A DNA stretch of 64,000 nt from an uncultured candidatus Porisulfidus sp. (GCA_965242985.1 OZ251520.1:142426-206425), one strand, 5' to 3'; numbered from the stretch's first letter, positions 2,935 to 58,122 are shown. Notes: generated by a model from the sequence alone, not told the origin. A program made the numbers and translations.

Positions 2935-2956
2935 GCGGCGCCCGCCCGCCCCCGCG

Positions 2957-3880: not shown

Positions 3881-3918
3881 GTAGAATGCACGCGTCTCGA
3901 ACCACCCGGAGCGCGAGC

Positions 3919-4473
3919 ATGCGCGCGGCGGCGCGTCTCGGTCTGGCAATCGGCCTCCTGCTGTGCGCGCCGGCGGCGCCGGCGGCGCTGGAGCTGAGCG
4001 CGGTGCGCGCCGAACGGACCGCGCAGACGGTCGCGCTCAGCCTGGAGCTGGAGCTGCGGGACCCGGGCGGGCGCGTCGCCCGCGCCCTGCTGCGCGGCGA
4101 CGTCTGGCTGACGGTGGACCTCGTCCTGCACCGCACCGGCCGGTGGTGGCAGGAGGCGCGCCCGGTCGGCCGGCTGCGGCTGCTGCGGCGGCTCGCCTAC
4201 GAGCCGCTGCGGCAGGCCTACCGGGTGCACGACGTCAACCGCGGCGAGCGCACCGACTTCGACGACCTCGGCGCCGCGCTGGCGCGCCTGCTCCGCCTGC
4301 GCGCGGTGCCGGCGGCGCGCCTCGACCGGCTGCCCGGCGCGCCGGCGGAGTTCCGCGGCGAGGCGCGCGCGCGCCTGCACGCCAACCCGGCGCCGATGGA
4401 GCTGGCGCTCGACCCGGAACGCGAGGCGCCGCTCGACTGGCGCAGCGGCGCGGTGCGATGGCGGCTGCCCTGA
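3919..4473 (+). CDS. DUF4390-like secreted protein (conserved partner upstream of ntrY)
   Basis: ATG at 3919 followed by a signal peptide (RLGLAIGLLLCAPAAPAALE). About 184 aa. Sits between fmt and the ntrY-like kinase as in many beta/gamma-proteobacteria. Confidence 0.55.
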   Translation: MRAAARLGLAIGLLLCAPAAPAALELSAVRAERTAQTVALSLELELRDPGGRVARALLRGDVWLTVDLVLHRTGRWWQEARPVGRLRLLRRLAYEPLRQAYRVHDVNRGERTDFDDLGAALARLLRLRAVPAARLDRLPGAPAEFRGEARARLHANPAPMELALDPEREAPLDWRSGAVRWRLP

Positions 4474-7970: not shown

Positions 7971-9332
7971 GTGAAGATCATCATCCTCGGCGCCGGCCGC
8001 ATCGGCAGCTCGCTGGCCATCGGGCTGACGCAGGAGAACAACGAGGTCACGCTGGTCGACCTGAACGAGCGGCTGCTGCGCAGCATCAGCAACCGCGTCG
8101 ACCTGCGCACCCTGCGCGGCCACGGCGCGCACCCCAACATCCTCGCCCAGGCCGGCGCCGAGAACGCCGACATGCTGGTCGCGCTGACCGCCAGCGACGA
8201 GGTCAACATGGTCGCCTGCCAGGTCGCCTACAGCCTGTTCAACGTCCCGCTGCGCATCGCCCGGGTGCGCGCCGCGGAGTACGTCCGCCACCCCGAGCTG
8301 TTCCATTCCGACACCCTGCCGGTCGACGTGCTGATCAGCCCGGAGCAGATCGCCTCGCGCAGCATCGAGCGGCTGATCCGCCAGCCCGGCGTGCTGCAGG
8401 TGATCGAATTCGCCGACGGCCTCGCGCAGCTGGCGGCGGTGCGGGTCGCGGCCGGCGCGCCGGCGGCCGGGCGCCGGCTGGCCGAGCTGCACGAGAGCCT
8501 GCCGAAGGTGCAGCTGCACGTGGCCGCGGTGTACCGCGACGGGCGGGCGGTGCGGCCGGACCCCGACCTGCGGCTGAAGGTGCACGACGAGGTGTTCGTG
8601 CTGGCCGCCGGCGACCAGCTGGGCCAGGTGATCGGCCGGCTGCGCGCGGACGTGCACGCCAGCCGCCACGTGCTGCTGGTCGGCGGCGGCAACATCGGCG
8701 GCAGCGTCGCCGCCGCGCTGGAGGGCGAGTTCCGGGTCAAGCTGATCGAGCGCGACGAGCGGCGCGCGCGCTACATGTCGGAGCAGCTGGCCGACACCCT
8801 GGTGCTGCACGGCGACGCCGCCGACGAGAACCTGATGCTGGACGAGAACCTGCGCGACATGGACGTGTTCTGCGCGCTCACCAACAGCGACGAGGCCAAC
8901 ATCCTGTCCGCGATGCAGGCCAAGCGCATGGGCGCCAACACCGTCATCGCGCTGATCAACCGCCCCTCCTACGTCGACTTGGTGGAGCGCTCCATCGACA
9001 TCGCGGTGTCGCCGCAGCAGGCGACCATGAGCGCGCTGCTGACGCACATCCGGCGCGGCGACGTGCTGTCCGTGCACTCCCTGCGCCGCGGCACGGCCGA
9101 GGCGCTCGAGGCGAAAGCGCACAACACCGCCGACGTGGTCGGGCGCCCGCTCGGCGCGCTCAGCCTGCCGGACAGCGTCGACATCGGCGCCCTGGTGCGC
9201 GGCCGCGAGCTGATCATCCCGGACGACGCCACCGTGATCAAGCCGGACGACCGCGTGATCCTGTTCGTCGGCGACAAGCGCCACATCCGCGACGTGGAGC
9301 GGCTGTTCCAGGTCAGCGCCACGTTCTTCTAG
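7971..9332 (+). CDS. trkA: Trk potassium uptake protein TrkA (two RCK/NAD-binding domains)
   Basis: MKIIILGAGRIGSSLA Rossmann motif at the N-terminus and a second copy (VLLVGGGNIGGSVA) mid-protein. GTG start. Confidence 0.9.
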   Translation: MKIIILGAGRIGSSLAIGLTQENNEVTLVDLNERLLRSISNRVDLRTLRGHGAHPNILAQAGAENADMLVALTASDEVNMVACQVAYSLFNVPLRIARVRAAEYVRHPELFHSDTLPVDVLISPEQIASRSIERLIRQPGVLQVIEFADGLAQLAAVRVAAGAPAAGRRLAELHESLPKVQLHVAAVYRDGRAVRPDPDLRLKVHDEVFVLAAGDQLGQVIGRLRADVHASRHVLLVGGGNIGGSVAAALEGEFRVKLIERDERRARYMSEQLADTLVLHGDAADENLMLDENLRDMDVFCALTNSDEANILSAMQAKRMGANTVIALINRPSYVDLVERSIDIAVSPQQATMSALLTHIRRGDVLSVHSLRRGTAEALEAKAHNTADVVGRPLGALSLPDSVDIGALVRGRELIIPDDATVIKPDDRVILFVGDKRHIRDVERLFQVSATFF

Positions 9333-9334
9333 GC

Positions 9335-10801
9335 ATGGCCGTCCAATTCCGGGTCGTCCAGCGCCTGCTCGGCTACCTGCTGACCTTCTTCAGCCTCAGC
9401 ATGCTGCCGCCGCTGGCGGTCAGCCTCGGCTACGGCGACGGCGAGGCGTTCTCGTTCTTCTACGCCTTCGTGCTGCTGTCGCTGCTCGGCACCGCGCTGT
9501 GGGTGCAGGCCGCCCACCGCGCGCCCCGGCGCAGCCCGCTGCGGCTGCGCGACGGCTTCATCGTGGTGGCGCTGTTCTGGGTCGGCCTGGGGCTGGCCGG
9601 CGCCGTGCCGCTGTACCTGTCGCCGGCGCTCGGCCTGGCCGCGGTCGACGCCGTCTTCGAGTCGGTCTCCGGCCTGACCACCACCGGCGCGACCATCCTC
9701 GCCGGCCTCGACGCGCTGCCGCCCTCGCTGCTGTTCTACCGCCAGTTCCTGCAGTGGATCGGCGGCCTCGGCATCATCGTGCTGGCGGTGGCGGTGCTGC
9801 CGCTGCTCGGCATGGGCGGCATGCAGCTGTACCACGCCGAGGCGCCGCACGCGCTGGCCGAGCGGCGCCTGACGCCGCGCATCACCGAGACCGCCAAGGT
9901 GCTGTGGCACCTGTACCTGGGCCTGACGGTGGCCTGCGGCCTCGCCTACTGGGCCGCCGGCATGACCCCGTTCGACGCGGCGTGCCACGCCTTCTCGACC
10001 ATCGCCATCGGCGGCTTCTCCACCCACGACGCCAGCTTCGCGCATTTCGACAGCATCGCCGTGGAGGCGGTGGCGATGCTGTTCATGACGCTGGCCGGGG
10101 TCAACTTCGGCCTGCACTACCTGGCGCTCAGCAAGCGCCGCCCGCGCCTGTACGCCGAGGACGGGGAATTCCGCGCCTACGCCGCGGTGCTGCTTTGCAC
10201 CGCCGCCGTGTGCATCGCCTACCTGGCCGCGGCCGGCTTCTACGCCGACCCGGCCGACACCCTGCGCCACGGCCTGTTCCAGACCGTGTCCATCGCCACC
10301 ACCACCGGCTTCACCACCACCGGCTACGACCACTGGCCGGCGTTCGTCTCGACCCTGCTGCTGCTGACCAGCTTCATCGGCGGCTGCATCGGCTCCACCG
10401 GCGGCGGCATGAAGGTGGTGCGCTTCCTGCTGATGATCAAGCACGGCCGCAAGGAGCTGCAGCGCATCCTGCACCCGGCCGCGCAGATCACGGTGAAGAT
10501 CGGCAACCGCGTGATGACCGACAACGCGCTGCAGGCGGTGTGGGGCTTCCTCGCCGCCTACATCACCACCTTCGTGGTGGTGCTGCTGCTGCTGCTGCTG
10601 ACCGGCCTCGACCACGTCACCGCCTTCTCGGCGGTGGCCGCCACCCTCAACAACCTCGGCCCGGGCCTCGGCGCGGTGAGCGAGAACTACGCCGCGGTCC
10701 CCGCCGCCGGCAAGGCGCTGCTGTGCCTCAGCATGCTGTTCGGGCGGCTCGAGGTGTTCACCCTGCTGGTGGTGCTGACGCCGTCGTTCTGGCGGCGCTG
10801 A
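9335..10801 (+). CDS. trkH: Trk potassium uptake membrane protein TrkH
   Basis: Multi-TM protein with repeated GLTTTGAT / TTTGFTTTG selectivity-filter-like motifs. Begins 3 nt after the trkA stop. Confidence 0.9.
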
Positions 10802-12227: not shown

Positions 12228-12414
12228 TCAATAGGATAACACAGGAAGAACGTTGTTTCAATACCGAAATAAAGCAAAATATTGATAAACAATATAATTT
12301 TTTATTTCTATTATCGTTTTTCTATATTAAAATCATCATTTGGAATGGATATGCAATAACATTTAGAATTATAGTATGCTAACATTTGCAAGAAGACTTC
12401 CAGTCCATGCATTC

Positions 12415-13662
12415 ATGAAGAAAAACCTCTATCCGCGCCATGCCGAGCAGAATCTGCTGGCGACGCTGGACGAATCCCCCGCCGTCCTGGTCCACGGCCC
12501 CCGCCAGTGCGGAAAAACCACGCTGGCGCGCATGATCGGAGAAACTCGAGGCTGCCAATTCGTTGATTTTAACCTGCGCGCGCCGCGCGAGAACGCGCGC
12601 AACGACCCGGACGGCTTCGCGGCCGGCCTGCCGGAGCGCGCCATCCTCGACGAAGTGCAGCTCGTGCCCGAACTGTTCGCGGCGCTGCGAGTGGAAATCG
12701 ACCGCCGCCGCGCCCCGGGCCGGTTCCTGATGACCGGCTCCAGCAACGTTCTGCTGTCGCCGAAACTTGCCGATTCTTTGGCGGGCCGCATGGAGATCCT
12801 GGACCTGCACCCGCTGTCGCAGTGCGAACTGGAGCGCGCCGAGCCGGCCTTCCTGGATGCGCTCTTCGCGGCGGACTTCCGGATGCGGACCACCGAGCCG
12901 CTGCTCCGGCAACTCGCGGAGCGCGTCGCAACGGGCGGCTATCCGGCGATCTTCGCGCGGCCATCCGCGCGGGGCCGGAGAAACTGGCATCGCAACTATG
13001 TCCGCATGCTCATGCAGCGCGACATCCGGTCTCTGCAGCGCATTTACTCGCCGGACGCCGTGCCGAAACTGCTGGAGCTGGCCGCCGCGCAGAGCGCCCA
13101 ACTGCTGAACGTGGCCGGAATCGCGTCCAACTTCGAATTGAATCGGCTCACGGTCCGCAGCTACCTGACGCTGCTGCGGAATATCTTCGTGCTGGACCAT
13201 CTGCCCGCGTGGCATCACAAGCGGGGCGCGGGCCTTGTGAAAAGGCCCAAGCAGCATTTCGGCGACACCGGCCTTGCGTGCTTCCTGCTGAAAGCCGGCG
13301 CGGAAGAACTTTACGCGCCGCACTTGGACCGCGCGCTGTTCGGGCGCCTGCTGGAGACTTTCGTGCTGCAGGAATTGCGGCGGCAGGCCAGCGCCGGCCG
13401 AGAGCCGGTGGACTTTTTTCATTACCGGGAGAAATCCGGAGCGGAAGTGGACATCGTGCTCAGCCGCGGCAGCCGCTTGGCGGGCATCGAAGTCAAGGCG
13501 GCCGCCACGGCCGGCGCGGAAGACTTTCGCGGGCTGAAGCGCTTTCGGAAGTTGGCGGGCGAGCGCTTCGCCTGCGGGGCGGTGCTGTATGACGGACACC
13601 ATTGCTTGCGGTTCGGAGACCGGCTTCACGCGGTGCCGATCCGCTGCCTCTGGGAGACGTGA
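12415..13662 (+). CDS. AAA+ ATPase with DUF4143-like C-terminal domain (AAA_14/DUF4143 family)
   Basis: Walker A GPRQCGKTT and Walker B ILDEVQ. C-terminal region is typical of the widespread DUF4143 ATP-binding proteins. Preceded by a 190-bp AT-rich spacer. ATG at 12415 (an alternative ATG lies at 12376). Confidence 0.65.
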   Translation: MKKNLYPRHAEQNLLATLDESPAVLVHGPRQCGKTTLARMIGETRGCQFVDFNLRAPRENARNDPDGFAAGLPERAILDEVQLVPELFAALRVEIDRRRAPGRFLMTGSSNVLLSPKLADSLAGRMEILDLHPLSQCELERAEPAFLDALFAADFRMRTTEPLLRQLAERVATGGYPAIFARPSARGRRNWHRNYVRMLMQRDIRSLQRIYSPDAVPKLLELAAAQSAQLLNVAGIASNFELNRLTVRSYLTLLRNIFVLDHLPAWHHKRGAGLVKRPKQHFGDTGLACFLLKAGAEELYAPHLDRALFGRLLETFVLQELRRQASAGREPVDFFHYREKSGAEVDIVLSRGSRLAGIEVKAAATAGAEDFRGLKRFRKLAGERFACGAVLYDGHHCLRFGDRLHAVPIRCLWET

Positions 13663-13782
13663 CCATGCGGAGGGCATGGACACGCGGCGCTTCCCGGCCA
13701 TGCCGGCGGCCGCCGGCGCGGGCGCGCCCCGGACTCCTTGCGGGCCGGGCGCGGACGCAGTAAAATACGCAATTCCTGCGCC

Positions 13783-15552
<1,770 letters not shown>

Positions 15553-15570
15553 GCGCGCGGGCGCGGCGGA

Positions 15571-15647
15571 GGGCCTGTAGCTCAGTCGGTCAGAGCAGGG
15601 GACTCATAATCCTTTGGTCGCAGGTTCGAATCCTGCCGGGCCCACCA
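15571..15647 (+). tRNA. tRNA with CAT anticodon (elongator tRNA-Met or lysidine-modified tRNA-Ile2), CCA-encoded
   Basis: Cloverleaf reads as acceptor stem GGGCCTG/CGGGCCC, D-arm GCTCAGTCGGTCAGAGC, anticodon loop CTCATAA (CAT), T-arm GCAGGTTCGAATCCTGC, then A and CCA. Body resembles tRNA-Ile2(LAU)-type sequences. Confidence 0.8.
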
Positions 15648-15700
15648 TCTGCTAGAATGCGCCCCCCGGTTCCGGCTTTCCGCACCCGCAACGTCTCCTT

Positions 15701-16132
15701 ATGGTCACCATCCGGCTCGCGCGCGGCGGCGCCAAGAAGCGCCCGTTCTACCACCTGGTGGTCACCGATTCGCGCAAGCCGCGCGACAGCGGCCACTTGG
15801 AGCGGCTCGGCTTCTTCAACCCCATCGCCGGCGGCGGCGAGGAGGAGCTGCGCGTCGATCAGGAGCGCGTGCGGTTCTGGCAGGACCGCGGCGCGCAGAC
15901 CTCCGGGCGCGCCGCGCAGCTGATCCGCCGGCACGCCGAGGCCGGGACCGGCGGCGAAGAAACTCCGCCGGCCGCGGCGGAAAAGACCGCCGAAAAGGCT
16001 GCCGCAAAGGCCGCTGAGGAACCCGCGGCCGCAGCCGCCGCGAAGCCGGCCGCCGAGCCGGCCGCCGAGAAAGCGGCGGCCCCCGAGACGGAGGCGGCCG
16101 CGCCGGCCGAGGCGGAGCCGGCCGCCGACTGA
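15701..16132 (+). CDS. rpsP: 30S ribosomal protein S16 with ~60-aa Ala/Glu/Pro-rich C-terminal extension
   Basis: [22 protein letters not shown]16 core (~82 aa), followed by a low-complexity AAEKAA/PAAEPAA tail. Confidence 0.9.
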
Positions 16133-16164
16133 GGCGCCCCGCGCCCGGGCCGCGCGCGGCGCGC

Positions 16165-16683
16165 ATGGCGCACGATCCCGACGAAGAACGCGTCGCCTGC
16201 GGCCGGGTGGCCGGCGCGCACGGGGTGCGCGGCTGGCTGCGCGTCCGCTCCGACACCCGCCCGCCCGACAACCTGCTGCGCTATCCCCGCTGGCAGCTGC
16301 GCGGCGGCGGCCGCCGCCTGGACCTGCCGCTGGAGCGCGGCCGCCGCCAGGGGCGGCGGCTGCTCGCCAAGCTCGCGGGGGTCGGCGACCGCGACGCCGC
16401 GGCCGCGCTCGCCGGGCGCGAGATCTGGATCGAGGCGGCGGCGTTCGCGCCGCTGCCGGCGGGCGAGTACTACCACCACCAGCTGCTGGGCCTGGCCGCG
16501 GTCGACCAGCGCGGCGCGCCGCTCGGCCGGGTGGCGCGCATCCTCGAGACCGGCGCGCACGACGTGCTGCTGATCGCGGGCGGGGAGGAGCGGCTGGTGC
16601 CGTACGTCCCGGGCGAGACGGTGCTGGCGGTGGAGCTCGGCGCCGGCCGCATCCGGGTGCGCTGGGACGGCGTCGCGGGCTGA
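16165..16683 (+). CDS. rimM: Ribosome maturation factor RimM
   Basis: Position in the rpsP-rimM-trmD-rplS operon. RimM N-terminal domain (GRVAGAHGVRGWLRV) and PRC barrel. Confidence 0.85.
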   Translation: MAHDPDEERVACGRVAGAHGVRGWLRVRSDTRPPDNLLRYPRWQLRGGGRRLDLPLERGRRQGRRLLAKLAGVGDRDAAAALAGREIWIEAAAFAPLPAGEYYHHQLLGLAAVDQRGAPLGRVARILETGAHDVLLIAGGEERLVPYVPGETVLAVELGAGRIRVRWDGVAG

Positions 16684-24189: not shown

Positions 24190-25810
24190 GGCGCAGCCCC
24201 CTCCGTTCCGGCCGGCGCGCGTTCAGCAGCAGCACCGGCAGCAGGCCCGCCGCCACCAGCGCCACCGCCGGCAGCGCGGCGCGCTCCCACAGGCCCTCGG
24301 CGGTGAGGCCGTAGACGCGCACCGCCAGCGTGTCCCAGCCGAGCGGGCGCAGCAGCAGGGTGGCGGGCATCTCCTTCATCACGTCGACCAGCACCAAGAG
24401 CGCCGCGGTCAGCAGCCCCGGGCGCAGCAGCGGCAGGTAGATGCGCCGGAACAGCGCGAAGCCCGACAGGCCGAGCGCCTGCGCCGCCTCGCGCGCGCCG
24501 GCGCGCAGCTGCTCGAACGCGGCGTCGACCGGGCCGTAGGCCAGCGCCAGGAAGCGCGCGAAGTACGCCAGCACCAGGCCGGACGCGCCGCCGACCAGGC
24601 CCCAGCGCAGCGTCTCGCCGCTCCACCACAGCCAGCCGGCCGCCAGCTGCCGGTCGACCCAGCTGAGCGACAGCATCACCGCCACCGCCAGCACCGAGCC
24701 GGGGATCGCGTAGCCGAGCGTGCCGACGCGGGCCGCGGCGCGGGACAGGCGGCCCGGGCGGTGGCGCACCGCCGCCGCCAGCAGCACGGCGCCGAGCACG
24801 GTGGCGAGCGCGGCGGCCGCGCCGAGGCCGAGCGTGTTGCCGAGCAGGTCCAGGTAGCGGGCGTCGAGGTCGGCGCGGCTGTCCCAGGCCCAGGCCAGCA
24901 GCTGCGCGAGCGGCAGCAGGAACGCCAGCAGCAGCACCAGGGCGCAGCAGCCGCAAGCGGCGGCGGCGTGGCCGCCGCGCAGCCGCCGGCGGCGGGCGGG
25001 GCGGCCGCCCTCCGCGTAGCGCGCGCGCGCGCGGCTGTAGCGCTCGAGCGTCAGCAGCGCCAGCGCGAACAGCAGCAGCAGCGAGGCCAGCTGGCTGGCG
25101 GCGTGCAGGTCGAACATGCCGAACCAGGCCTTGTAGATGGCGGTGGTGAAAGTGTCGAAGTTGAACACCGCCACCGCGCCGAAGTCGGCCAGCGCCTCCA
25201 GCACCGCAAGGCTGACGCCGGCGGCCACCGCCGGGCGCGCCAGCGGCAGGGCGGCGCGGAAGAACGCGCCGGCGGCGGACATGCCGAGGGTGCGCGCCGC
25301 CTCGAAGGCGGTCTGGCCCTGGCCCAAGAAGGCGACGCGCGCGAGCAGGTAGACGTAGGGGTACAGCACCAGCGTCATCACCGCCAGCACGCCGGCGGGC
25401 CCGCGCGCCTCGACGCCGAAGCCGGGCGGCAGCCCGAGCCAGCGCCGCGCCAGCTCCTGCGCCGGGCCCTGGAAGTCGAGCAGGCCGAGGAACACGAACG
25501 CCATCACGTACGTGGGCAGCGCGAACGGCAGCATCAGCGCCCAGTTGAAGACGCTCCGCCCGGGGAAGTCGTAGGCGCTGACCAGCCAGGCGAGGGCGAC
25601 GCCGAGCAGCGCGGTGCCGGCGGCGACGCCGAGCATCAGCAGCAGGGTGTTGGCGAGCAGCCGGCCGAGCACGGTGCCGGCCAGGTGGCTCCAGACCTCC
25701 CCGGCCGGGGCGGCCCAGCCGGAGAAGATCACCAGTAGCGGCAGCAGCACGCCGCCGGCCAGCAACAGGCTGCCGGCGCGCAGGGCCCGGCCCGGGAGAG
25801 TCGCGGTCAC
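24176..25810 (-). CDS. fbpB: Iron(III) ABC transporter permease, fused two-domain (FbpB-like)
   Basis: ~544 aa multi-TM protein. GTG start at 25810 chosen so that the Arg-rich non-membrane upstream read-through is excluded. Sits 41 nt downstream of the fbpA stop. Confidence 0.7.
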   Translation of the reverse strand: MTATLPGRALRAGSLLLAGGVLLPLLVIFSGWAAPAGEVWSHLAGTVLGRLLANTLLLMLGVAAGTALLGVALAWLVSAYDFPGRSVFNWALMLPFALPTYVMAFVFLGLLDFQGPAQELARRWLGLPPGFGVEARGPAGVLAVMTLVLYPYVYLLARVAFLGQGQTAFEAARTLGMSAAGAFFRAALPLARPAVAAGVSLAVLEALADFGAVAVFNFDTFTTAIYKAWFGMFDLHAASQLASLLLLFALALLTLERYSRARARYAEGGRPARRRRLRGGHAAAACGCCALVLLLAFLLPLAQLLAWAWDSRADLDARYLDLLGNTLGLGAAAALATVLGAVLLAAAVRHRPGRLSRAAARVGTLGYAIPGSVLAVAVMLSLSWVDRQLAAGWLWWSGETLRWGLVGGASGLVLAYFARFLALAYGPVDAAFEQLRAGAREAAQALGLSGFALFRRIYLPLLRPGLLTAALLVLVDVMKEMPATLLLRPLGWDTLAVRVYGLTAEGLWERAALPAVALVAAGLLPVLLLNARRPERRGLRHGAA

Positions 25811-25851
25811 CGCGCCGAGTATACGCCGGGCGCCGCGCGGCGGCGGCCGCG

Positions 25852-26871
25852 CTAGCGGTAGCCGGCGCGGTCCATGAGGCGGACCGCGGCGGCCTGCAGC
25901 CGGCCCGCCTCGCTCAGGTTGACGGCGTCGCCGCGGAATTCGCCCCAGGCCGCGACGGCCGGGGCGGGGGGGAGGTCCTCCCGGACCGGGTACTCCAGGT
26001 TCAGGGACGCGAACAGGCCCTGGGCCGCGGGCGCGACCAGCCACTCCAGGAATTTCCGCGCCGCCGCCGGATGGCGCGCGCGGGTCGTCACCCCGGCGCC
26101 GGACACGTTCACGTGCACGCCCTGCGCGTCCTGGTTCGGCCAGAACAGCGCCAAGTCGAGGCCGGGCTCCTTGCGCATCAGCCGGCCGTAGTAGTAAGTG
26201 TTCACGATCGCCGCGTCGCAGCGCCCGGCGGCCACCGCCTGCAGCGTCTTGGTGTCGTTGCCGAACGGGTCGGCGGCGAGGTTGGCGACCCAGCCCGCGA
26301 CGATCTTCTCGGCTGCTTCTTCGCCGTGGTGCGCGATCAGGACGGCGACCAGCGACTGGTTGTAGACTTTCTTCGAGGTGCGCAGGCACAGCCGGCCTCG
26401 CCACTTCGGGTCGGCCAGGTCCTCGTAGGCGGACAGCTCGCCGGGGCCGGTGCGCGTCGGGTTGTAGGCGATGGTGCGGGCGCGCTTGGACAGGCCGAAC
26501 CAGCGGTTGCCGGGGTCGCGCAGCGCGGCCGGGACGGCGCGGGTCAGGACCTCCGACTCGAGCGGCGCCAGCAGGCCGCGCTCGGCGGCGTGCCAGAGAT
26601 TGCCGGCGTCGACGGTCAGCAGCAGGTCGACGGAACTGTTGCCGTTGCCCGCGGCCAGGCGCTCGAGCAGCGGGCCGGGCTTGCCGGTGAGCAGCTCGAA
26701 CCGCACCCCGGTTTCCCGGGTGTAGGCCTCCAGAATGGGCTCGATCAGGTGGGCCTTGCGGGCGGAGTAGATGGTCAGCGTGACTGGCTCGTCCGCATGG
26801 CCGTCGGCGGGCGCGGCGGCGGGGAAAACAGCCGACAGGGCAAGGAAAACAGCGGGAAGCCGGCGGTGCAT
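25852..26871 (-). CDS. fbpA: Fe(3+) ABC transporter periplasmic substrate-binding protein (FbpA/AfuA-like)
   Basis: Signal peptide MHRRLPAVFLALSAVFPAAAPA. SBP_bac_1-type sequence with the Tyr-Tyr pair (NTYYYG). Confidence 0.8.
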   Translation of the reverse strand: MHRRLPAVFLALSAVFPAAAPADGHADEPVTLTIYSARKAHLIEPILEAYTRETGVRFELLTGKPGPLLERLAAGNGNSSVDLLLTVDAGNLWHAAERGLLAPLESEVLTRAVPAALRDPGNRWFGLSKRARTIAYNPTRTGPGELSAYEDLADPKWRGRLCLRTSKKVYNQSLVAVLIAHHGEEAAEKIVAGWVANLAADPFGNDTKTLQAVAAGRCDAAIVNTYYYGRLMRKEPGLDLALFWPNQDAQGVHVNVSGAGVTTRARHPAAARKFLEWLVAPAAQGLFASLNLEYPVREDLPPAPAVAAWGEFRGDAVNLSEAGRLQAAAVRLMDRAGYR

Positions 26872-26884
26872 GGGCGCAACTGGT

Positions 26885-26908
26885 AATGAGAATGGCTATT
26901 ATTCACAT
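26885..26908. promoter_or_regulatory. Candidate Fur box upstream of fbpA (AATGAGAATGGCTATTATTCACAT)
   Basis: AT-rich hexamer repeats (AATGAG AATGGC TATTAT TCACAT) resembling GATAATGATAATCATTATC, located 15-40 nt upstream of the fbpA start codon. Confidence 0.4.
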
Positions 26909-27680
26909 AAGCAGATGGGTGTCAAGGACTATGTTCCTGATAAAAAAGTGGGCTGGGCGGGCGCGTTTTGTGCCCAAAAGATTCCAGACAAGAATCGGCG
27001 GGTGGCTATGGGAATAACCGGACTTGGGACATGGAGCGGATTGAAACATGAACCCTTTGGTGCTGGAGAAGTATAGCGAGGTCATGGCGCACATTCACCC
27101 TGAGGATATCAAGCGGGAAAAGCAGCTGCGACCCGCGCTGTACTGTGTTGGGTGTCTGGTTCCGGCTGCTCCGTCGCTCATTGCCAAGGGGAGGGGCGGC
27201 CTCGTGTTTCCGGCCAGTGGAAAGAGGTCTTCGTGCACAGTTGCTTCTGGCGCCCGTGTCGCTGCAAACACGGCTCTTGGCGGTCGCAGCCAAATCGGGA
27301 TTGCCCCCTCCCCCGAAGTTGGCGGCTAAAAAGCGAGATACGCGGGGCTAGCGCAAGCTCATCGTGCTCGGCTGGTAGTCGCTGGTGGTCTGGAAGCGCG
27401 AGATGCGCAAAGAGTAAGGTCTTGGCTAAGGCGGTGCGGCCTCTCCGAGATGGCGAGGAGTGTCTCGCGGCAGGCGATCTCTCAGGTAAATTTACAAGAG
27501 CCTGCGAACGGATAGTTCTGGAACTGGAAAATTTTGGAGTAGCGAATTATAGATTCAGGGTATAGCTCAAGTTTTGTCCAATGCGTTGCCGCTCGTGTTG
27601 GACCATCGGCAATCTCCGAACCCGCTAAGCTATTAGTTTGCCGAGAGAAATTGGGGAAGCCTTGTACTCATCCGATTGGC

Positions 27681-28904
27681 TTATCGTTTTACTAGCAGCG
27701 CAATATCCCGTCCAAGACGTTCGGCTGTATCGAGGTTTAGCGTGAATCCTTGGTAACCCCATAGTGAAAATAAAACTAGTGTGATTTGAGGAGATTCTTG
27801 TTTTTTTTCGGGGCGGACTACGTTAAGTTTCCAGTGGTTGACAGGCGAAAAGTTAACGGAAAGAGTAGCATTTTCTCCAAAAAGGAGATTATCGACTCGT
27901 TGTTTTACCTCTCTATCGGAAATTACATTCGCATCGGTTCCAATACAGGGCTGTAACGTTTTAAGTGAATCAGTAATTTCGGCAGCCACGAAGAATTCTC
28001 GAGAACAACGCGCGATTGCTTCGCGCAAATTATAGGGCAAGATACGTGGTTTTTGTAGAGCACCGACAAGAACATTACTAGAATTAAGTGGAAGATAGAT
28101 CGCAGTTAAATCATCATTGGGAGTGAGGTGATTTTTGTAGCAAGGTTGTCCAGCAACACGGAAGAGGACGATAGAATCTCCTAAAACCATAGGTAGATCT
28201 GCTGTAGGCAGAACTGCGTACGATAGATTCGCATATTTTTCTGCCCCTTCTTTTTGTGCGGTAGGATTGTCTAGCGATTGTAGGTGCCGAAGTTTAATTT
28301 CCTCACGGATAAATTCATCAAGCCATGATTTCCAATCGGCGAAAGTTTTTGTAGTTGCTCTCTGGTCGATAGCACCAGAACCAAAACGATGTATTAACAT
28401 ACGCATAGGCTCTTCCGATTCACTGGGCCACCTAGATGTTTGTAGTTCCGCTGCAATCATATTTCGGAGGGCTGCCGAATTACTACGCCCAAACTGCTTT
28501 ATCCACGCCTTGCGATTGCTCTCATTTGATAGGTATTCCATACATTTGTTGACAAGGATTCCCGTCGTATGCAGCAAAGTTTCTCTCAGGCATCTTGTCC
28601 GCATTTCGAAGTGAAAAAGCATCCTAGGTAAGAGATGGTTCGACAAAGCCGATTGCTTTCCGCGTTTAATTTGATCAAGTAACTTAGCAAAGTCAGCCTC
28701 CATTCGGGTTATGTTGGCGTCAACGTCAGAGATATTGCTATGTGAGTAAAAATGGTGTTGGACTCCAACATTTATTATATTGGTTTTGTACGGTTCTCCG
28801 TCATTCCGGAATACTTTGCAAGTAAAGCTATCTCTGCCATCCGACGGGATGGCAAATCCCCTTAAGACAAACTGAGGAATCGTGTGTTGTCGTTTTCCGC
28901 TCAT
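27681..28904 (-). CDS. DUF4238-like protein, paralog 1 (407 aa), low-GC island
   Basis: N-terminus MSGKRQHTIPQFVLRGF matches the DUF4238 hallmark (K.HH.PQFYL..F). Internal IINVG..FYSH and LPRM..HFE.R motifs and C-terminal WGYQGF are shared with paralog 2. ATG overlaps the stop of paralog 2 (ATGA). Local GC ~42-45%. Confidence 0.75.
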   Translation of the reverse strand: MSGKRQHTIPQFVLRGFAIPSDGRDSFTCKVFRNDGEPYKTNIINVGVQHHFYSHSNISDVDANITRMEADFAKLLDQIKRGKQSALSNHLLPRMLFHFEMRTRCLRETLLHTTGILVNKCMEYLSNESNRKAWIKQFGRSNSAALRNMIAAELQTSRWPSESEEPMRMLIHRFGSGAIDQRATTKTFADWKSWLDEFIREEIKLRHLQSLDNPTAQKEGAEKYANLSYAVLPTADLPMVLGDSIVLFRVAGQPCYKNHLTPNDDLTAIYLPLNSSNVLVGALQKPRILPYNLREAIARCSREFFVAAEITDSLKTLQPCIGTDANVISDREVKQRVDNLLFGENATLSVNFSPVNHWKLNVVRPEKKQESPQITLVLFSLWGYQGFTLNLDTAERLGRDIALLVKR

Positions 28905-30133
28905 GTTATTTTGTGCTTTTGGCGGATTTCTTGGCTCAGGCCCAGAAGTGTTTGCGAAAGATTTTCTGCCATCTTTCTGTCCAAAATAAATCCTTGATAA
29001 CCCCACATTGTTTCCAGTGCTAGCAATATGGCAGGAATTCCATTTTTTTCTTTAATTTCTCCTATATAGGAATAAACAGGAGTAGGGGTTATTTCACGAT
29101 AGAGCCTCTTCTCGAATAGGGGTTCATCAATAAACTTCTTTTTTTCTTCTTTCGTAAATAAGTTGGAGTTGGCGCCAATTTTTCCTTGTAGTTTTTGATT
29201 TGTCTCAGTATTTTCGGAAGCAATAAAGTATTCGAGGGAACATTGAGCAACAATTTTAAGAAAATCGTCGGGTATCACCCTTTCCCGTTGGTGGGCTCCA
29301 ACTAGCACAGATTCGCTGTCAATTGGGAGGTAAACGGCGATTAGTTCATCGTCTGTGTCAAGAATAGTCTTGTATTGTTCTTCCGAGTTTACATGAAAGA
29401 GGAGAGGAAAATCCCCCAAAATCATACCATCATGTTTTTTTACTATGCTGTAGATTAGATGTTCATACTTTCTTGCTCGTGTTTTGGATGCAGGTGAGGA
29501 CTGTATTGACTTGATGTGACTAGACTGCGTAGTTTCTTCTCTCGCCGTTGTATGCTCGTGGATAAAGTTGCGGATGCTTTCGGGAAAACCCTCTGGGAGA
29601 TGTTGTCGCTGGTCGATTAGATTTGGACCCAACATTAGAAATGGCGTAAGCATTTCTTGGGGCAAGTTGTTTCCTTTCAAAGTTGCTTGAATGCCCTCTT
29701 GGACAAGGGGGGAATTGCGGCAAACCAAATCTTTCAGTTTGTTGGCAAGGCTTTCACCGTCGCCTATAAAATCGAGTATATTTGACATGAAAATTTCGTA
29801 TCCTTGTGAAAGATGATCTCTAAGATGTTTTGACCGAATTTCAAAGTGGGCAATCATTCTGGGAAGGCTGGGGCTTGATAAGGCTGTTTCTTGTCTAGCC
29901 CTGATTCCGTCAAGAAGATCTGCAAATATTGGTTCAATTTCAGTTATAGCATTATCGGCATCTAAATCATCATGCGTGTAGAAGTTACTTTCGGCACCAA
30001 CATTAATAATGTCGGCGTGAAATGGCTCTTTGTCACGTTGAAATACCCACGTGTGCTTCCTATTTTTGTGGGACGAAGAAACAAACCCTTCCAATAAGAA
30101 TCGGGGATTTATGTGGTGTCGTTTGCCAGACAT
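28901..30133 (-). CDS. DUF4238-like protein, paralog 2 (410 aa), low-GC island
   Basis: MSGKRHHINPRFLLEGF N-terminus. IINVGAESNFYTH, LPRMIAHFEIRSKHLRD and WGYQGF motifs are collinear with paralog 1 (roughly 30% identity by eye). Confidence 0.75.
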   Translation of the reverse strand: MSGKRHHINPRFLLEGFVSSSHKNRKHTWVFQRDKEPFHADIINVGAESNFYTHDDLDADNAITEIEPIFADLLDGIRARQETALSSPSLPRMIAHFEIRSKHLRDHLSQGYEIFMSNILDFIGDGESLANKLKDLVCRNSPLVQEGIQATLKGNNLPQEMLTPFLMLGPNLIDQRQHLPEGFPESIRNFIHEHTTAREETTQSSHIKSIQSSPASKTRARKYEHLIYSIVKKHDGMILGDFPLLFHVNSEEQYKTILDTDDELIAVYLPIDSESVLVGAHQRERVIPDDFLKIVAQCSLEYFIASENTETNQKLQGKIGANSNLFTKEEKKKFIDEPLFEKRLYREITPTPVYSYIGEIKEKNGIPAILLALETMWGYQGFILDRKMAENLSQTLLGLSQEIRQKHKIT

Positions 30134-30186
30134 ATGGGGGATTATAGCGGTTAGCTGGCAAAGATGGAACCGCTTATTCCACTTTT

Positions 30187-30403
30187 GGAGAATTATCCAG
30201 CAGATTTGACAAAGCCATGTGCGCCGAACCTATCTCGCTGTTAACCCACGGAAAGTCCGTCTAGGGCGCGGCGACCCTGAGCGGTATCAGCCGATTTCGC
30301 CGCTGACCGCCGTAAGCCGTGCTGCACCAGCATCGCCTGTTGCTAAATTGGCAGACGTGAATTGGTTGCGGTGCTTTCTGTCAACTTTGCTGGATAATTC
30401 CCT
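30187..30403. repeat. 13-15 bp inverted repeat pair (GGAGAATTATCCAGCAG ... TGCTGGATAATTCC) ~185 bp apart at the right edge of the low-GC island
   Basis: The two copies are exact reverse complements over TGCTGGATAATTC. They flank an AT-rich non-coding stretch just upstream of DUF4238 paralog 2. Confidence 0.5.
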
Positions 30404-30794
30404 TATTTTACGAAACTGGAGAATCTTTCAGGATTTCACCATATATATTTTATATCATATGCTTATTCGTCTCATGTCAACACTGGAATTGCGCTTTGAC
30501 ACTCACCCGGCTACAATTTCGCGCCGCAGATATGCCCAGTAGGAGGAATGCGATGTCCAATCGGTCCCTGCGCGAAGCTTAGGGGAATCGGAAAGCAGTG
30601 CTTCGCTAGTGTCGAGGAGCATCGCCGAAACGGTCCGGCTGAGATTCTTCAAGTTGGCCCTGAGAGCCGGCCGGTGGCGGAGATGCGCCGGCCGGCCGCC
30701 GGCCCGGGCCGGAACGCCGCCGCCGGAATGCCGGCACCGGGTACCATAAGCCGGAACGGCCCCGCACACCGCAAACGACATCCGCACTGCAAGC

Positions 30795-31433
30795 ATGGAA
30801 CTGGCCGCGGCCCGGCGCAACATGATCGAGCGGCAGCTGCGCCCGGCGCCGGTCGCCAGCGAGCGCGTGCTGGCCGCGTTCGAGGCCGTGCCGCGGGAAG
30901 CGTTCGCGCCGGCGGAACTGCGCGCGCGCGCCTACGCCGACCTGGAGCTGCCGCTGCCCGGCGGCGAGCGCATGATGACGCCGCGCACGGAGGCGCTGCT
31001 GCTGCAGGCGCTGGACCCGCGCCCGGGCGAGCGCGTGCTGGAGGTCGGCGCGGGCTCCGGCTTCCTCGCCGCGTGCATGGCCGCGCTCGGCGCTCGGGTC
31101 GACTCCCTGGAGCGGCGCGCCGAGCTCGCGGCGGCGGCGCGCGCCGCCCTGGCCGCGCAGGGCGCGGCCGCGGCCGCCGTGCATCATGCGGACGCCTGGG
31201 ACTGGCGCCCGGAGGCGCCCTACGACGCGGTGGCGCTCACCGGCTCGCTGCCGGAGTACGACCCGCGCTTCGAGGACTGGCTGCGGCCGTCCGGCCGGCT
31301 GTTCGCCATCGTCGGCGCGCCGCCGGTGGCGGAGGCGCGGCTGGTGCGCTGCTACGCGCCCGGCCAGCGCGCCGTGCAGAGCCTGTTCGAGCTCGCGGCG
31401 CGCCCGCTGGCGCGGCCCGGCGGCGGCGGCTGA
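30795..31433 (+). CDS. pcm: Protein-L-isoaspartate O-methyltransferase-like SAM methyltransferase
   Basis: VLEVGAGSGFLAACMAALGARV motif I. PCMT-like layout, ~212 aa. Confidence 0.7.
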   Translation: MELAAARRNMIERQLRPAPVASERVLAAFEAVPREAFAPAELRARAYADLELPLPGGERMMTPRTEALLLQALDPRPGERVLEVGAGSGFLAACMAALGARVDSLERRAELAAAARAALAAQGAAAAAVHHADAWDWRPEAPYDAVALTGSLPEYDPRFEDWLRPSGRLFAIVGAPPVAEARLVRCYAPGQRAVQSLFELAARPLARPGGGG

Positions 31434-31444
31434 CCGTGCGCGAG

Positions 31445-31759
31445 ATGTCCGCGGAGGAACTGCGCCGGCGGCTGGACGAGCCCGGCGCGCCGCCGCTGCT
31501 GCTCGACGTGCGCGAGCCCTGGGAGGTCGAGCGCGCCGCGCTGCCCGCGGCGCTGTGCATCCCGATGCGCGAGCTGCCGGCGCGGGCGGAAGAGCTGGAT
31601 CCCGCGCGGGAAACCGTGGTGCTGTGCCACCACGGCGTCCGCTCGCGCGCCGCCTGCCGCTACCTGGAGGAGCGCCGCCGCTTCGCCGACCTGCGCAACC
31701 TCACCGGCGGCATCGACGCCTGGGCGCGGCGGGTCGACCCGGCCGTGCCGACCTACTGA
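31445..31759 (+). CDS. Rhodanese-domain protein (single-domain sulfurtransferase)
   Basis: LLLDVREPWE...VVLCHHGVRSRAACRYL, active-site Cys loop CHHGVRS. 104 aa. Confidence 0.75.
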   Translation: MSAEELRRRLDEPGAPPLLLDVREPWEVERAALPAALCIPMRELPARAEELDPARETVVLCHHGVRSRAACRYLEERRRFADLRNLTGGIDAWARRVDPAVPTY

Positions 31760-31787
31760 GGCCCGCCCGCATGCGCGCGCGACCCTG

Positions 31788-33101
31788 GTGCGCCGCGGCC
31801 GCGGCCGCGCCGCCCTCGCCGGGCCGGCGGCGGGCGCCGAATCCCTGCTCGAGATCTACCGGCTGGCGCAGCGGCACGACGCCGCGCTGCAGGCCGCGGA
31901 GGCGCGCTACCAGGCGGACCTGCAGGCCGAGCCCATCGCCCGCGCCGCGCTGCTGCCGCAGCTGTCCTACGAACTGGACGTCTCCGAGGCGCGCGAGGTC
32001 CTGCGCGGCAGCCGCTTCGGCCAGCAGAGCGACGTCCTCAGCGAGCGCGGCACCACCCGCCGCGACGGCCTGAGCCTGTCGCAGACCCTCTACCACCACG
32101 ACCTGTACGTGAGCCTGCGGCGCGCCCGCTCGGTCGCGGCGCGCGCCCGCGCCCGGCGCGACGCGGCGCGGCAGGAGCTGATCGTGCGCGCGGCCGAGGC
32201 CTACTTCGACGTGCTGGCGGCGCGCGACGGCGCGCGCTTCGCCCGCCAGGAGCAGGCGTCCATCGGCCGCCGGCGGGAGCAGGCCGAGGCCCGCTTCCGG
32301 GTCGGCCTGGCCTCGCTGGTCGAGGTCAAGGAGACCCAGGCCGCCGCCGACCTGGCGGCGGCGCGCGCGGTCGACGCCGAGCACCTGCTGGCGAACCGCC
32401 GCGAGGCGCTGGCGGTGATCACCGGGCGGCGGCACCCGGCGCTGGCGGCGCTGTCGGCGCGCATGGAACTGACCCCGCCGGAGCCGCCCGCGCCCGAGCG
32501 CTGGGTCGCGGCGGCGCTCGAGCGCAACCTCGACTACCTGATCCGCCAGCACGACCTGGCGGTGGCCGCGCGCGACCTGGAGTTCGAGCGGGCGCAGCAC
32601 TACCCGACCCTGGACGCCTACGCCTCGACCGGCAAGAACGACCGCACCGGCGGCGTGTTCGGCGGCAGCCGGCTGCATACCGACCGCGTCGGCGTGCGCC
32701 TGCAGGTGCCGCTGCTGGCCGGCGGCGGAGTCGTCCACCGCGCGCTGCAGGCGGCGCACCGGCACGAGGCGGCCAAGGCCGAGCTGCAGGGCGAGCGGCG
32801 GCGCACCGAGCAGCGGGCGCGCTCCGCCTACCTGGACGTGCAGGCCGGCATCGCCCGCGTGCGCGCCTACCGGCGCGCGCTGGAATCGGCGCGGGTGGAG
32901 CTGGAGGCCAACCAGGTCGGCCTGGCGGCCGGCCGCCGCGACCTGGTCGACGTGGTGAGCGCCACCAGCCGGCTGTACGCCGCCGAGCGCGACCTGGCGC
33001 AGGCGCGCTACCGCCACCTGCTCGACACCCTCCGCCTGCGCCGGGCGGCCGGCAGCCTCGGCGACGCCGACCTCGCGCGCATCGACCGCTGGCTGGACTG
33101 A
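31788..33101 (+). CDS. tolC: TolC-family outer membrane efflux protein
   Basis: Two repeats of the TolC-type helical/beta-barrel architecture (LSQTLYHHDLY; TGKNDRTGGVFGGSRLHTDRVGVRLQVPLLAGGG). N-terminal signal is weak (RAALAGPAAGA). Confidence 0.7.
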   Translation: MRRGRGRAALAGPAAGAESLLEIYRLAQRHDAALQAAEARYQADLQAEPIARAALLPQLSYELDVSEAREVLRGSRFGQQSDVLSERGTTRRDGLSLSQTLYHHDLYVSLRRARSVAARARARRDAARQELIVRAAEAYFDVLAARDGARFARQEQASIGRRREQAEARFRVGLASLVEVKETQAAADLAAARAVDAEHLLANRREALAVITGRRHPALAALSARMELTPPEPPAPERWVAAALERNLDYLIRQHDLAVAARDLEFERAQHYPTLDAYASTGKNDRTGGVFGGSRLHTDRVGVRLQVPLLAGGGVVHRALQAAHRHEAAKAELQGERRRTEQRARSAYLDVQAGIARVRAYRRALESARVELEANQVGLAAGRRDLVDVVSATSRLYAAERDLAQARYRHLLDTLRLRRAAGSLGDADLARIDRWLD

Positions 33102-33109
33102 GCCCGCCC

Positions 33110-34354
33110 GTGGCCGCCGGCCCGCCGCTCGCCTACCGGGCGCTGACGCTGCTCGCCGCGCCGGCGGCGCTGGCCTACACCCTGGCGCGCGCGCTGCGCG
33201 ACGGCGGCGCGCTCTACCTGCGCCAGCGCTACGCGCTGGGCCTGCCGGCGGAGCTGGCCGGGCGCGTCTGCCTGCACTGCAGCTCGGTCGGCGAGGTGCG
33301 CGCCGCGCTGCCGCTGGCGCAGCGCCTGGAGCGCGACGGCCTGCGCCTGCTGCTGAGCGTCGCCACCCCGACCGGGCGGCGCGTGGCCCGCGCCCTGCTG
33401 CCCGAGGTGCCGCGGGCGTACTTCCCGCTCGACCACCGGACGGTGGCGCGGCGCTGGCTGGCGCGGCTCGCGCCGCGCGCGGTGCTGGTGTTCGAGACCG
33501 AGCTGTGGCCGCACTTCTACGCCGCCGCCGAGGCCCGCGGCGCGCCGCCGGCGCTGGTCAACGCCCGGCTGTCGGCGCGCACCGCCCGCCCGCCCCGCCT
33601 GCTGCGCGGCGCCTTCCGCCAGGCGGCGCGCCGGGCGCGCTGCATCCTCGCCCGCAGCGCGGCGGACGCGGCGCGCTTCCGCGAACTGGGCGCCGACCCC
33701 GAACGCGTCGCGGCGCTCGGCAACCTCAAGTACGCGGCGCCGGCCGCCGGGCCCGACGCCGGCCCGCCGCTGCCCGGGCCGTACGCGCTGGCCGCCTCCA
33801 CCCATGCGGACGAAGAGCGGCAGCTGGCCGAACTCTGGCGCGGCCTCCCCGACCGCCGCGGCCACCTGCTGGCGATCATGCCGCGCCATCCGGAGCGCGC
33901 CGCGCGCCTGGAGGCGGCGCTGCGCCGCGCCGGGTTCCGGGTGCGGCGCCACTCGCGGGACGGCCGCCCCGCGCCCGACACCGAGCTCTACCTGGCGGAC
34001 ACCCTGGGCGAGCTGCCGCGCTGGCTCCGGCACGCGTCGTTCGCGTTCCTCGGCGGCTCGCTGACGCCGCGCGGCGGCCACAACGTGCTGGAGCCCGCCC
34101 TCGAGGGCTGCGCCTGCGCGGTCGGCCCGCACACCTTCAACTTCGCCGACGAGGTCGCGGCCCTGCGCGCCTGCGGCGGCCTGGAGCAGGCGGCCGACGC
34201 GGCGGAGCTCGCCGGCGTGTTCGCGCGCTGGCTGGCGGATCCGGCGGCGGCGGCGGCCGCGGCCGCGCGGGCGCGGGAACACGTGCGCGCCCGCGCCGAC
34301 ATCGCCGAGCGCTATCTGGCGGAACTGCGCCGCTACGGCGCGCTGCCCGCGTAG
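33110..34354 (+). CDS. waaA: 3-deoxy-D-manno-octulosonic acid transferase (Kdo transferase)
   Basis: N-terminal PLLWRGLY-like region and C-terminal glycosyltransferase domain (MPRHPERA...TLGELPRW...GGHNVLEPA). Confidence 0.8.
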   Translation: MAAGPPLAYRALTLLAAPAALAYTLARALRDGGALYLRQRYALGLPAELAGRVCLHCSSVGEVRAALPLAQRLERDGLRLLLSVATPTGRRVARALLPEVPRAYFPLDHRTVARRWLARLAPRAVLVFETELWPHFYAAAEARGAPPALVNARLSARTARPPRLLRGAFRQAARRARCILARSAADAARFRELGADPERVAALGNLKYAAPAAGPDAGPPLPGPYALAASTHADEERQLAELWRGLPDRRGHLLAIMPRHPERAARLEAALRRAGFRVRRHSRDGRPAPDTELYLADTLGELPRWLRHASFAFLGGSLTPRGGHNVLEPALEGCACAVGPHTFNFADEVAALRACGGLEQAADAAELAGVFARWLADPAAAAAAAARAREHVRARADIAERYLAELRRYGALPA

Positions 34355-51257: not shown

Positions 51258-51698
51258 TCAGGTTCCGCGCACTGGATTCAGATCAATCCATTGCAGCCCG
51301 GAGAATTTGGAGAAATCCCGGTCAAACGATGCGACCGCCGCACGGTGCGACATCGCCAGTGCCGCCAAGTGTGCATCCATGACCAAGTTGCCGCCTTGGC
51401 CCGTATCCGCCAACAGCTGACGCAGGCGCGGCCAATGATCTTCCGGCTCCGGCACCAGCCGGGCGCTTGGCAGCTCCAGCCACTTGTCCACTTGCTTACT
51501 GGCCTGCTGTAGCGTAAGAGGGTGTTCAAAGACCGAATCGCGAGTGCTTAGCCGCAGAAATCCAGTTACCACCATCCAAGAAAAACCGATCACCTCCCTT
51601 CGGTCGAATGACTCCGCCAGCCATTCCCGCGCTGCCCCATGGTGGAAATTCCCTTTGTTCGCCGCCGACACGACGACGTTGACATCGACCAATATCAC
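51258..51698 (-). CDS. vapC: PIN-domain toxin, VapC family
   Basis: ILVDVNVVVSA N-terminus (first PIN acidic residue), conserved D (GGNLVMDAHLAALA), C-terminal SFDRDF. GTG start. Lower-GC islet. Confidence 0.75.
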   Translation of the reverse strand: MILVDVNVVVSAANKGNFHHGAAREWLAESFDRREVIGFSWMVVTGFLRLSTRDSVFEHPLTLQQASKQVDKWLELPSARLVPEPEDHWPRLRQLLADTGQGGNLVMDAHLAALAMSHRAAVASFDRDFSKFSGLQWIDLNPVRGT

Positions 51699-58113: not shown

Positions 58114-58122
58114 TGCAAGTCT

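Follow-up and report, generated by a model that had tools for sequence, protein, structure and literature searches.

A low-GC cassette upstream of fbpA carries a coupled pair of diverged DUF4238 paralogs that may form a two-subunit defence system

A 64,000-nucleotide stretch of DNA from an uncultured candidatus Porisulfidus sp. (GCA_965242985.1 OZ251520.1:142426-206425; hereafter the window) carries, between an fbpA-like and a pcm-like gene, an inserted low-GC block with two tandem, overlapping genes of the DUF4238 family, here called dufA and dufB. The host, an uncultured gammaproteobacterium, has a very GC-rich genome of ~1.9 Mb. The block can be regarded with high confidence as a mobile defence-type cassette, and it is reasonably likely that dufA and dufB serve anti-phage defence. 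The explanation that we favour, with a little more than even confidence, is that the pair is a heterodimeric variant of the single-gene DUF4238 defence, carried on a cassette in a hotspot upstream of fbpA. The original prediction, made from the sequence alone, had put forward a defence role as a hypothesis; this role is now strengthened by the other cargo of the hotspot and by the restriction-modification (R-M)/Vsr, SLFN_AlbA_2-ATPase and HNH genes that accompany the pair, all of this being evidence from genomic context.

The insertion itself is well delimited. The composition profile of the window dips at ~26.9-30.6 kb, where GC content falls from 0.73-0.80 to 0.39-0.45. The nearest relative, locus L069, whose fbpA is 97% identical to that of the window, has an empty site at this place, with the gene order TolC-rhodanese-pcm-[297 bp]-fbpA and no cargo between. 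In a blastn comparison, window positions 24972-26929 align with positions 1-1965 of the reverse complement of L069, and positions 30633-33160 with its positions 2042-4572, both at 97.3% nucleotide identity. As placed by blastn, the inserted block is 3703 bp long (26930..30632), replaces 76 bp of the empty site and has a GC content of 0.460, while the flanks have 0.733 and 0.784. Since the closest relative has an empty site there, the block was inserted horizontally between these two genes, fbpA and pcm, as had been proposed; the deviant composition and the empty site agree on this point. The span originally given, 26872-30545, caught a real block, but its true edges, 26930 and 30632, lie ~60-90 bp further to the right. 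The segment 26872..26929 (minus strand) is a conserved region upstream of fbpA that belongs to the host and not to the island: it matches the fbpA upstream regions of two other relatives, L005 and L006, at 89-95% identity, and a promoter scan places in it a promoter-like site TTGACA-16-AATAAT at 26925..26898.

The two genes stand apart from their surroundings in codon usage as well. GC content at third codon positions (GC3) is 0.38 for dufA and dufB in the window versus ~0.95 (0.94-0.97) in neighbouring genes, and it stays at 0.38-0.46 in every host carrying the pair, where the neighbouring genes have 0.94-0.97; the low GC is thus not confined to the window, and none of these hosts carries the pair at native composition. 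No integrase ORF was found within the block, no direct repeats at its junctions and no tRNA within 11 kb of it, the sole tRNA of the window being a tRNA-Met at 15571-15647. Site-specific integration was rejected because the block has neither a tRNA target nor an integrase nor junction repeats; cargo is probably exchanged when the conserved flanks undergo homologous recombination.

Because relatives hold GmrSD, R-M genes or the same pair upstream of fbpA, this slot is a variable defence hotspot. Close relatives, L069 among them, were found by a search with the fbpA-like protein; in the others, fbpA is 88-92% identical to that of the window. The cargo upstream of fbpA consists of a GmrSD_N protein and a helix-turn-helix (HTH) gene in L066 (7598-9436), a 339-aa protein and a DNA cytosine methylase in L067 (7612-9598), a small HTH gene only in L068 (9324-9584) and the DUF4238 pair in L005. 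L006 has the fullest set, comprising an SLFN_AlbA_2/HATPase_c_4 gene, the pair, a restriction endonuclease-like gene, Dcm, Vsr and an rve transposase. The pair is also present on two shorter contigs, where it adjoins EcoRII, Vsr, Dcm and an HNH gene (L001) or an SLFN_AlbA_2-ATPase, a methylase and a 343-aa gene (L003). On its far side, the upstream slot borders pcm, gpgS or nuo, depending on the relative, which makes it a synteny breakpoint too. Just downstream of the fbpABC operon, L067 carries a NotI-type R-M system with two D12-class methylases (13730-16540); two variable spots thus flank one iron-uptake operon.

In the left ~800 bp of the block, no intact gene was found, in line with the original prediction, which had seen only decayed ORFs there; the remains can now be identified. 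A tblastn search reveals a pseudogene of the very-short-patch repair endonuclease vsr at 27048..27487 (plus strand). Broken by at least two frameshifts, it is what remains of a Dcm-type R-M module. The match is divided between frames +3 and +2, and the fragment MNPLVLEKYSEVMAHIHPEDIKREKQL corresponds to the N-terminus of the frameshifted vsr. The relic is 72% identical at the nucleotide level to L006 13597-14120, that is, to most of the intact vsr gene (13568-14023) plus ~100 nt past its start, and the intact L006 protein matches TIGR00632 vsr with 159 bits. Given this match to an intact Dcm/Vsr module, the window has retained the pair together with a remnant of its former R-M companion. A second vsr relic, 71% identical at the nucleotide level to that of the window, lies at L003 8190-8508 (L004 5273-5591) between a DNA methylase gene and fur, where no gene had been called; vsr has thus decayed independently or repeatedly beside these cassettes.

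Both DUF4238 genes are on the minus strand. The upstream one, dufA (28901..30133), encodes a long-form paralog of 410 aa with a C-terminal beta-beta-beta-alpha extension at ~350-410 (protein A); the downstream one, dufB (27681..28904, ORF from the ATG at 28904), encodes a paralog of 407 aa with the same C-terminal extension (protein B). In a mechanical ORF list, the frame of dufB reaches an upstream GTG, giving 441 aa. Aligned end to end, the two proteins share 35% identity (E 7e-77). An ATGA at 28901..28904 (minus strand) contains both the stop codon of dufA and the start codon of dufB, an overlap that signals translational coupling; the junction ATGAGCGGAAA was also read in L001, L003, L005 and L006 and is identical there.

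A perfect TATAAT hexamer (30141..30146, minus strand) precedes the dufA ATG by 7 nt, and the space between the two contains no Shine-Dalgarno sequence. The closest ortholog locus, L001, repeats this arrangement (TATAAT, 8 nt, ATG), and it is possible, judging from the sequence, that the hexamer acts as the promoter of a leaderless or near-leaderless dufA transcript. Further upstream within the block, a 211-bp element (30190..30400) is bounded by 22-nt terminal inverted repeats, whose ends are 91% complementary and 167 nt apart, with 0 such matches expected by chance. Its GC content is 0.55 and its RNA folding z-scores are -4.5 and -5.9; no second copy was found in the window and none in any fetched locus, and an Rfam search of the non-coding parts of the block, this element included, gave no match at E up to 1. 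The element could be a remnant similar to a miniature inverted-repeat transposable element or a structured RNA.

Assignment of both proteins to DUF4238, as originally proposed, is borne out by a whole-protein hidden Markov model (HMM) search, in which A scores 39.6 bits (E 5.5e-10) and B 37.1 bits (E 3e-09) against Pfam PF14022, whose gathering score is 27 bits. PF14022 is also matched by 52 of the 53 sequences of alignment A2, which comprises both window proteins and their homologs, and Pfam searches with all 53 family members at E up to 10 returned DUF4238 only. No match to the pair proteins was found in NCBIfam, in PHROGs or, by tblastn, in 50,697 phage genomes. The motifs said to be shared by the two proteins (IINVG..FY.H, LPRM..HFE.R, WGYQGF) are indeed present in both, and both conform to the family motifs K-R-x-H-x-x-P-x-F-L, H-x-E-x-R, G-D, K and C-S-x-E-x-F. 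Residues E67, H96, E98, R100, G240, D241 and P270 are invariant in alignments A1 and A2, and K4, R5, H7, P10, H206, K255, C298 and S299 are at least 90% conserved there, A and B included. The conserved polar set that emerges in the DUF4238 core (H7, E48, D60, E67, H96-x-E98-x-R100, K203, H206, D241 and K255) most likely represents a catalytic or ligand-binding site.

DUF4238 genes in general tend to be AT-rich: they lie under the GC content of their flanks in 43 of 46 loci, with a mean difference of 0.09. In four loci from unrelated GC-rich hosts (L007, L040, L038 and L028), the gene lies 24-35 GC points under its flanks, for example 0.40 versus 0.68 in L007 and 0.30 versus 0.65 in L040. This family-wide AT-richness may reflect more than recent transfer. 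In L006, the gene caller had cut the A ortholog to 354 aa (P0006), a form without a Pfam match; the ORF (8757-10004) is really open from the ATG at 8757, encodes 415 aa and begins MAGKRHHINPRF.

The claim that DUF4238 has no assigned function does not hold entirely. A one-gene DUF4238 system from a P2 prophage hotspot confers strong T7 resistance (Rousset et al. 2022, PMC9122126), and an active TIR defence system is reported to include a DUF4238 domain (PMC11350192). The family is also catalogued as defence, by the PADLOC model DUF4238-Pers and in DefenseFinder output, where a survey uses the label Rst_DUF4238. An E. coli relative that is 29% identical to A sits between two AAA_15/21+HNH modules. 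Around the solitary relatives from GTDB species, the 150 neighbouring ORFs are heterogeneous and include no conserved partner gene.

Several lines of evidence show that dufA and dufB have evolved as a unit. The tandem pair with its 4-bp overlap occurs in five loci, L001 and L003-L006, and both gene order and the ATGA overlap are constant across them, so that conserved pairing is found beyond the window. A neighbour-joining tree places the A and B clades as sisters with identical internal branching (window and L001; L005; L003 and L006), and long forms of the A or B type were never seen alone. Purifying selection acts on both genes, with ratios of nonsynonymous to synonymous divergence (dN/dS) of 0.16-0.22 for A and 0.18-0.34 for B. 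The reading of the two genes as an old duplication kept as a pair, advanced in the original prediction, is thus upheld by the congruent sister clades, the pairing in five loci and the purifying selection. The least saturated comparison, L003 versus L006, gives synonymous divergence (dS) of 0.26 and 0.36. Between the window, L005 and L006, the pair has dS of ~1.0-1.5 and 55-60% amino-acid identity, while the adjacent fbpA in the same comparison has dS of 0.18 and 88-90% identity. As the dS of the pair greatly exceeds that of fbpA, the alleles must be much older than the split of the hosts, and the cassette has been exchanged and not co-inherited with them. To find a cassette with GC3 of ~0.4 in hosts with GC3 of ~0.95, despite purifying selection and dS of at least 1, makes it an unusually sharp case of non-ameliorated cargo, and makes one ask whether its rare codons help to hold a potentially toxic system at a low dose.

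The two paralogs have diverged at different conserved positions. A substitution table comparing them with 37 other family members shows that all B proteins carry W29C, E48Q, H103C and G205R at invariant or near-invariant positions, and that all A proteins, along with a clade of short A-like proteins, carry K203Q. E48 is glutamate in 37/37 other members and throughout the A clade. A solitary long form, encoded in L007, retains W29, E48 and K203. The simplest history would be that a long form homodimerising through its tail was duplicated and that the copies then lost different residues, a pattern of loss which fits mutually dependent subunits. With E48 lost only in B, K203 only in A and the rest invariant, these positions stand out as candidate functional residues.

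A third paralog of the short A-like type, P0007, is encoded elsewhere in the genome of the window and was studied via its orthologs. In L064 (3823-5423) and L072 (1692-3295), a solitary short A-like gene (333-334 aa) lies 140 bp downstream of a 152-aa SocA_Panacea gene; the two genes have a GC content of 0.46-0.53 in hosts of ~0.75 and lie between a DUF433 gene and ispA. Panacea is an antitoxin domain. SocA_Panacea and DUF4238 may be an antitoxin/toxin pair, and the adjacency of the short A-like gene to a SocA_Panacea gene hints that the A-type protein is toxic and requires a keeper.

A, B and the solitary L007 protein are ~60 residues longer than ordinary family members of 333-350 aa, and the extension bears an invariant W-G-x-Q-G-F. 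AlphaFold2 (AF2) monomer models have a predicted local distance difference test score (pLDDT) of 80 for A and 78.5 for B. They outline a core made up of a small beta unit at the N-terminus, a long helical insert of low conservation and a conserved beta-rich part; profile searches with the core against PDB chain sequences gave noise only, and in a Foldseek search of the PDB the best E was 0.08, with no solved structure matched. In the A model, the tail is predicted to form three beta-strands followed by one alpha-helix (pLDDT 77-88), as in a COMM domain. The COMM domain is an obligate intertwined dimeriser that builds the eukaryotic Commander ring. Structure matches of the A model include at least ten COMMD chains along with a bacterial COMMD-like protein, followed by Cpn0803 and Pur-alpha repeats. 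The B model, in which the tail is not folded, gave none of these matches, so the matches of A must come from the tail. The tail would thus have a COMM-like fold without belonging to the COMM family, a label restricted to "COMM-like" because there is no sequence similarity to COMM. Against 1.84 billion representative proteins, a tail profile found only the A and B clusters. A scan of JGI metagenomes for WG[YH]QGF[TVI]L returned two short matches, and the one inspected (L070) was an unrelated phage-like helicase. If the module is what the model suggests, it predicts an oligomeric working state and offers a candidate interface.

Taken together, the pair may work as follows. dufA and dufB would be co-transcribed, possibly from the TATAAT 7 nt before the dufA start, and ATGA-coupled translation would yield roughly equal amounts of A and B. 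The C-terminal beta-beta-beta-alpha modules would then join the two proteins, giving a heterodimer or a larger ring; we give about even chances to an A/B complex assembled through COMM-like tails. The conserved polar residues of the DUF4238 cores would act as a catalytic or ligand-binding site. The complex would be asymmetric, because A (K203Q) and B (E48Q, W29C, H103C) have lost different invariant residues, with one subunit probably being the effector and the other a sensor or regulator. The outcome would probably be growth arrest or death of the infected cell. A bolder form of this proposal would make dufA and dufB the subunits of an immune enzyme that is obligately heterodimeric or ring-forming and assembles through the COMM-like module, one paralog being a regulatory pseudo-enzyme that silences the toxic one until infection; this seems to us rather doubtful.

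Several observations weigh against a heterodimeric defence system. Solitary relatives, spread over 55 species, adjoin mostly housekeeping genes and few defence genes. While the HMM check proposed for the pair succeeded with Pfam DUF4238, the PADLOC profile PDLC03000 barely recognises A (E 0.038, 11.5 bits, in the N-terminal 110 residues) and does not match B; relatives, including the E. coli one, also fail it. The solitary short A-like paralogs likewise have Q203, so this substitution by itself cannot force A to depend on B. As to the tail, the COMM-like fold comes from one AF2 monomer model, the B tail having a pLDDT below 50; among 14 tail sequences, no match to the Pfam COMM_domain was found at E up to 10, and a profile search with the tail matched no PDB chain sequence, COMMD chains included.

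Three other explanations have to be weighed against a heterodimeric DUF4238 system. Multiple ThsB paralogs in Thoeris loci broaden the range of phages recognised, and dufA and dufB could similarly be independent single-protein defence genes in tandem, perhaps homodimers, whose duplication widens the phage range. In its favour, the relatives from GTDB species representatives are solitary in 57/57 loci, with no tandem pair, the solitary long form in L007 has the same tail, and both paralogs keep H7, E67, H96, E98, R100, H206, D241 and K255. The experimentally supported DUF4238 system is moreover a single protein (PMC9122126). However, independent genes would hardly be expected to keep ATGA coupling and gene order so strictly, to give congruent A and B trees across loci whose alleles have dS of at least 1, with no lone long A or B seen, or each to lack a different invariant residue, as interdependent subunits would. 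On balance, we consider tandem independent genes unlikely.

The pair might instead be a toxin-antitoxin addiction module, with A as a toxic enzyme and B as an altered, neutralising paralog that together stabilise the cassette with no dedicated anti-phage role. Such a division of labour is suggested by E48Q in B, at a position where the 37 other members and the A clade have glutamate, by the two loci in which a short A-like paralog without B adjoins a SocA_Panacea gene, and by the mobility of the cassette, whose alleles are much older than the adjoining host genes. Yet B equals A in size and in constraint (its dN/dS being 0.18-0.34) and keeps the rest of the conserved set, and neither Pfam nor PADLOC reveals toxin or antitoxin homology. 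Toxin-antitoxin and abortive-infection functions are also compatible, so that this explanation overlaps with the favoured one; a purely addictive role appears quite unlikely. Even less probable is non-defence accessory cargo, such as a regulatory or metabolic enzyme pair that landed in a permissive hotspot. The lack of a solved relative of the core fold, the mostly housekeeping neighbours of solitary relatives, the negligible PADLOC match and the absence of matches in phage genomes or PHROGs would suit it, but it has to contend with the anti-T7 DUF4238 protein (PMC9122126) and the DUF4238 domain of an active TIR system (PMC11350192). The pair is also repeatedly found with R-M/Vsr, SLFN_AlbA_2-ATPase and HNH genes, the slot holds GmrSD or R-M in relatives, and the alleles turn over faster than the flanks do, as is typical of defence genes.

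If the bolder form of the proposal is correct, the pair would for the first time give a COMM-like fold a functional setting in prokaryotic immunity, and would be a natural experiment pointing to the active-site residues of the DUF4238 fold. DUF4238 has been catalogued as defence on the strength of one plaque assay, and a two-subunit version would offer new handles on it. Apart from the mechanism, the states seen at the one slot (empty, GmrSD, R-M, and the pair with or without R-M) form a natural presence/absence series of defence-cassette exchange, set in a small, extremely GC-rich gammaproteobacterial lineage.

The block is flanked by host genes on both sides. To the left lies an fbpA-like gene (25852..26871, minus strand, GC3 0.94) for an Fe(3+) ATP-binding cassette (ABC) transporter substrate-binding protein, homologs of which are named iron(III)/Fe(3+) substrate-binding proteins. 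To the right lies a pcm-like gene (30795..31433, plus strand) for a protein-L-isoaspartate O-methyltransferase, with NCBIfam NF001453 as the best match; its score of 127.5 bits is under the cut-off of 188, and the L069 ortholog matches Pfam PCMT.

Other patches of lowered GC occur elsewhere in the window. Near its end, a patch with a GC content of 0.54 holds a gene (62425-63798, plus strand) for a 457-aa AAA_15/AAA_21/AAA_23 ATPase with a C-terminal DUF3696, a type common in defence. The lower-GC patch at 51.25-52.5 kb includes a 146-aa ORF with a PIN domain (VapC-like toxin; 51258-51698, minus strand); the small ORFs beside it have no Pfam match and could include an antitoxin. At the edge of the lower-GC patch at 12.0-12.75 kb, ~2 kb upstream of the tRNA-Met, a 428-aa AAA_14 + DUF4143 ATPase is encoded (12376-13662, plus strand). 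Finally, the 2.5-kb patch at 56500-59000 (GC ~0.53-0.59) contains several ORFs of 170-320 aa on both strands, which have no significant Pfam match (sub-threshold HEAT_2 only), and it may be another acquired island.

Among known systems, the closest to the pair is the single-gene DUF4238 system (DUF4238-Pers in PADLOC). The two share Pfam PF14022, the motifs K-R-x-H-x-x-P-x-F, H-x-E-x-R, G-D and K, and a location in a variable hotspot with defence genes. They differ in that the window has a coupled, diverged pair (35% identity) instead of one gene, that each window paralog has a C-terminal module of ~60 aa absent from members of 333-350 aa, and that the window pair has no prophage context and resides in a GC-rich uncultured gammaproteobacterium. 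The solitary L007 protein, from an alphaproteobacterial metagenome-assembled genome (OZ251449.1, 8001-9236), resembles the paralogs in its length of 411 aa, its W-G-R-Q-G-F module, its 40% identity to A and its low GC; unlike them, it is solitary, branches outside the A+B clade and keeps W29, E48 and K203.

The comparison with COMM/COMMD-like proteins (PF07258; PMC13392464) concerns the predicted fold of the tail: the pair has no COMM sequence similarity, and the preceding 345 residues form a mixed alpha/beta DUF4238 core and no helical HN domain. Similar alternatives to COMM are offered by the C-terminal domains of Pur-alpha/Whirly and Cpn0803, and the tail could therefore bind nucleic acid instead. 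With respect to defence-island hotspots, the slot in the window differs in having no integrase, tRNA or flanking direct repeats, but it has the same organisation, one slot with interchangeable cargo (GmrSD, Dcm-type R-M, DUF4238 pair) and one empty site. Single-gene DUF4238 defence was already known, and what is new here is a coupled paralog pair with a predicted COMM-like tail.

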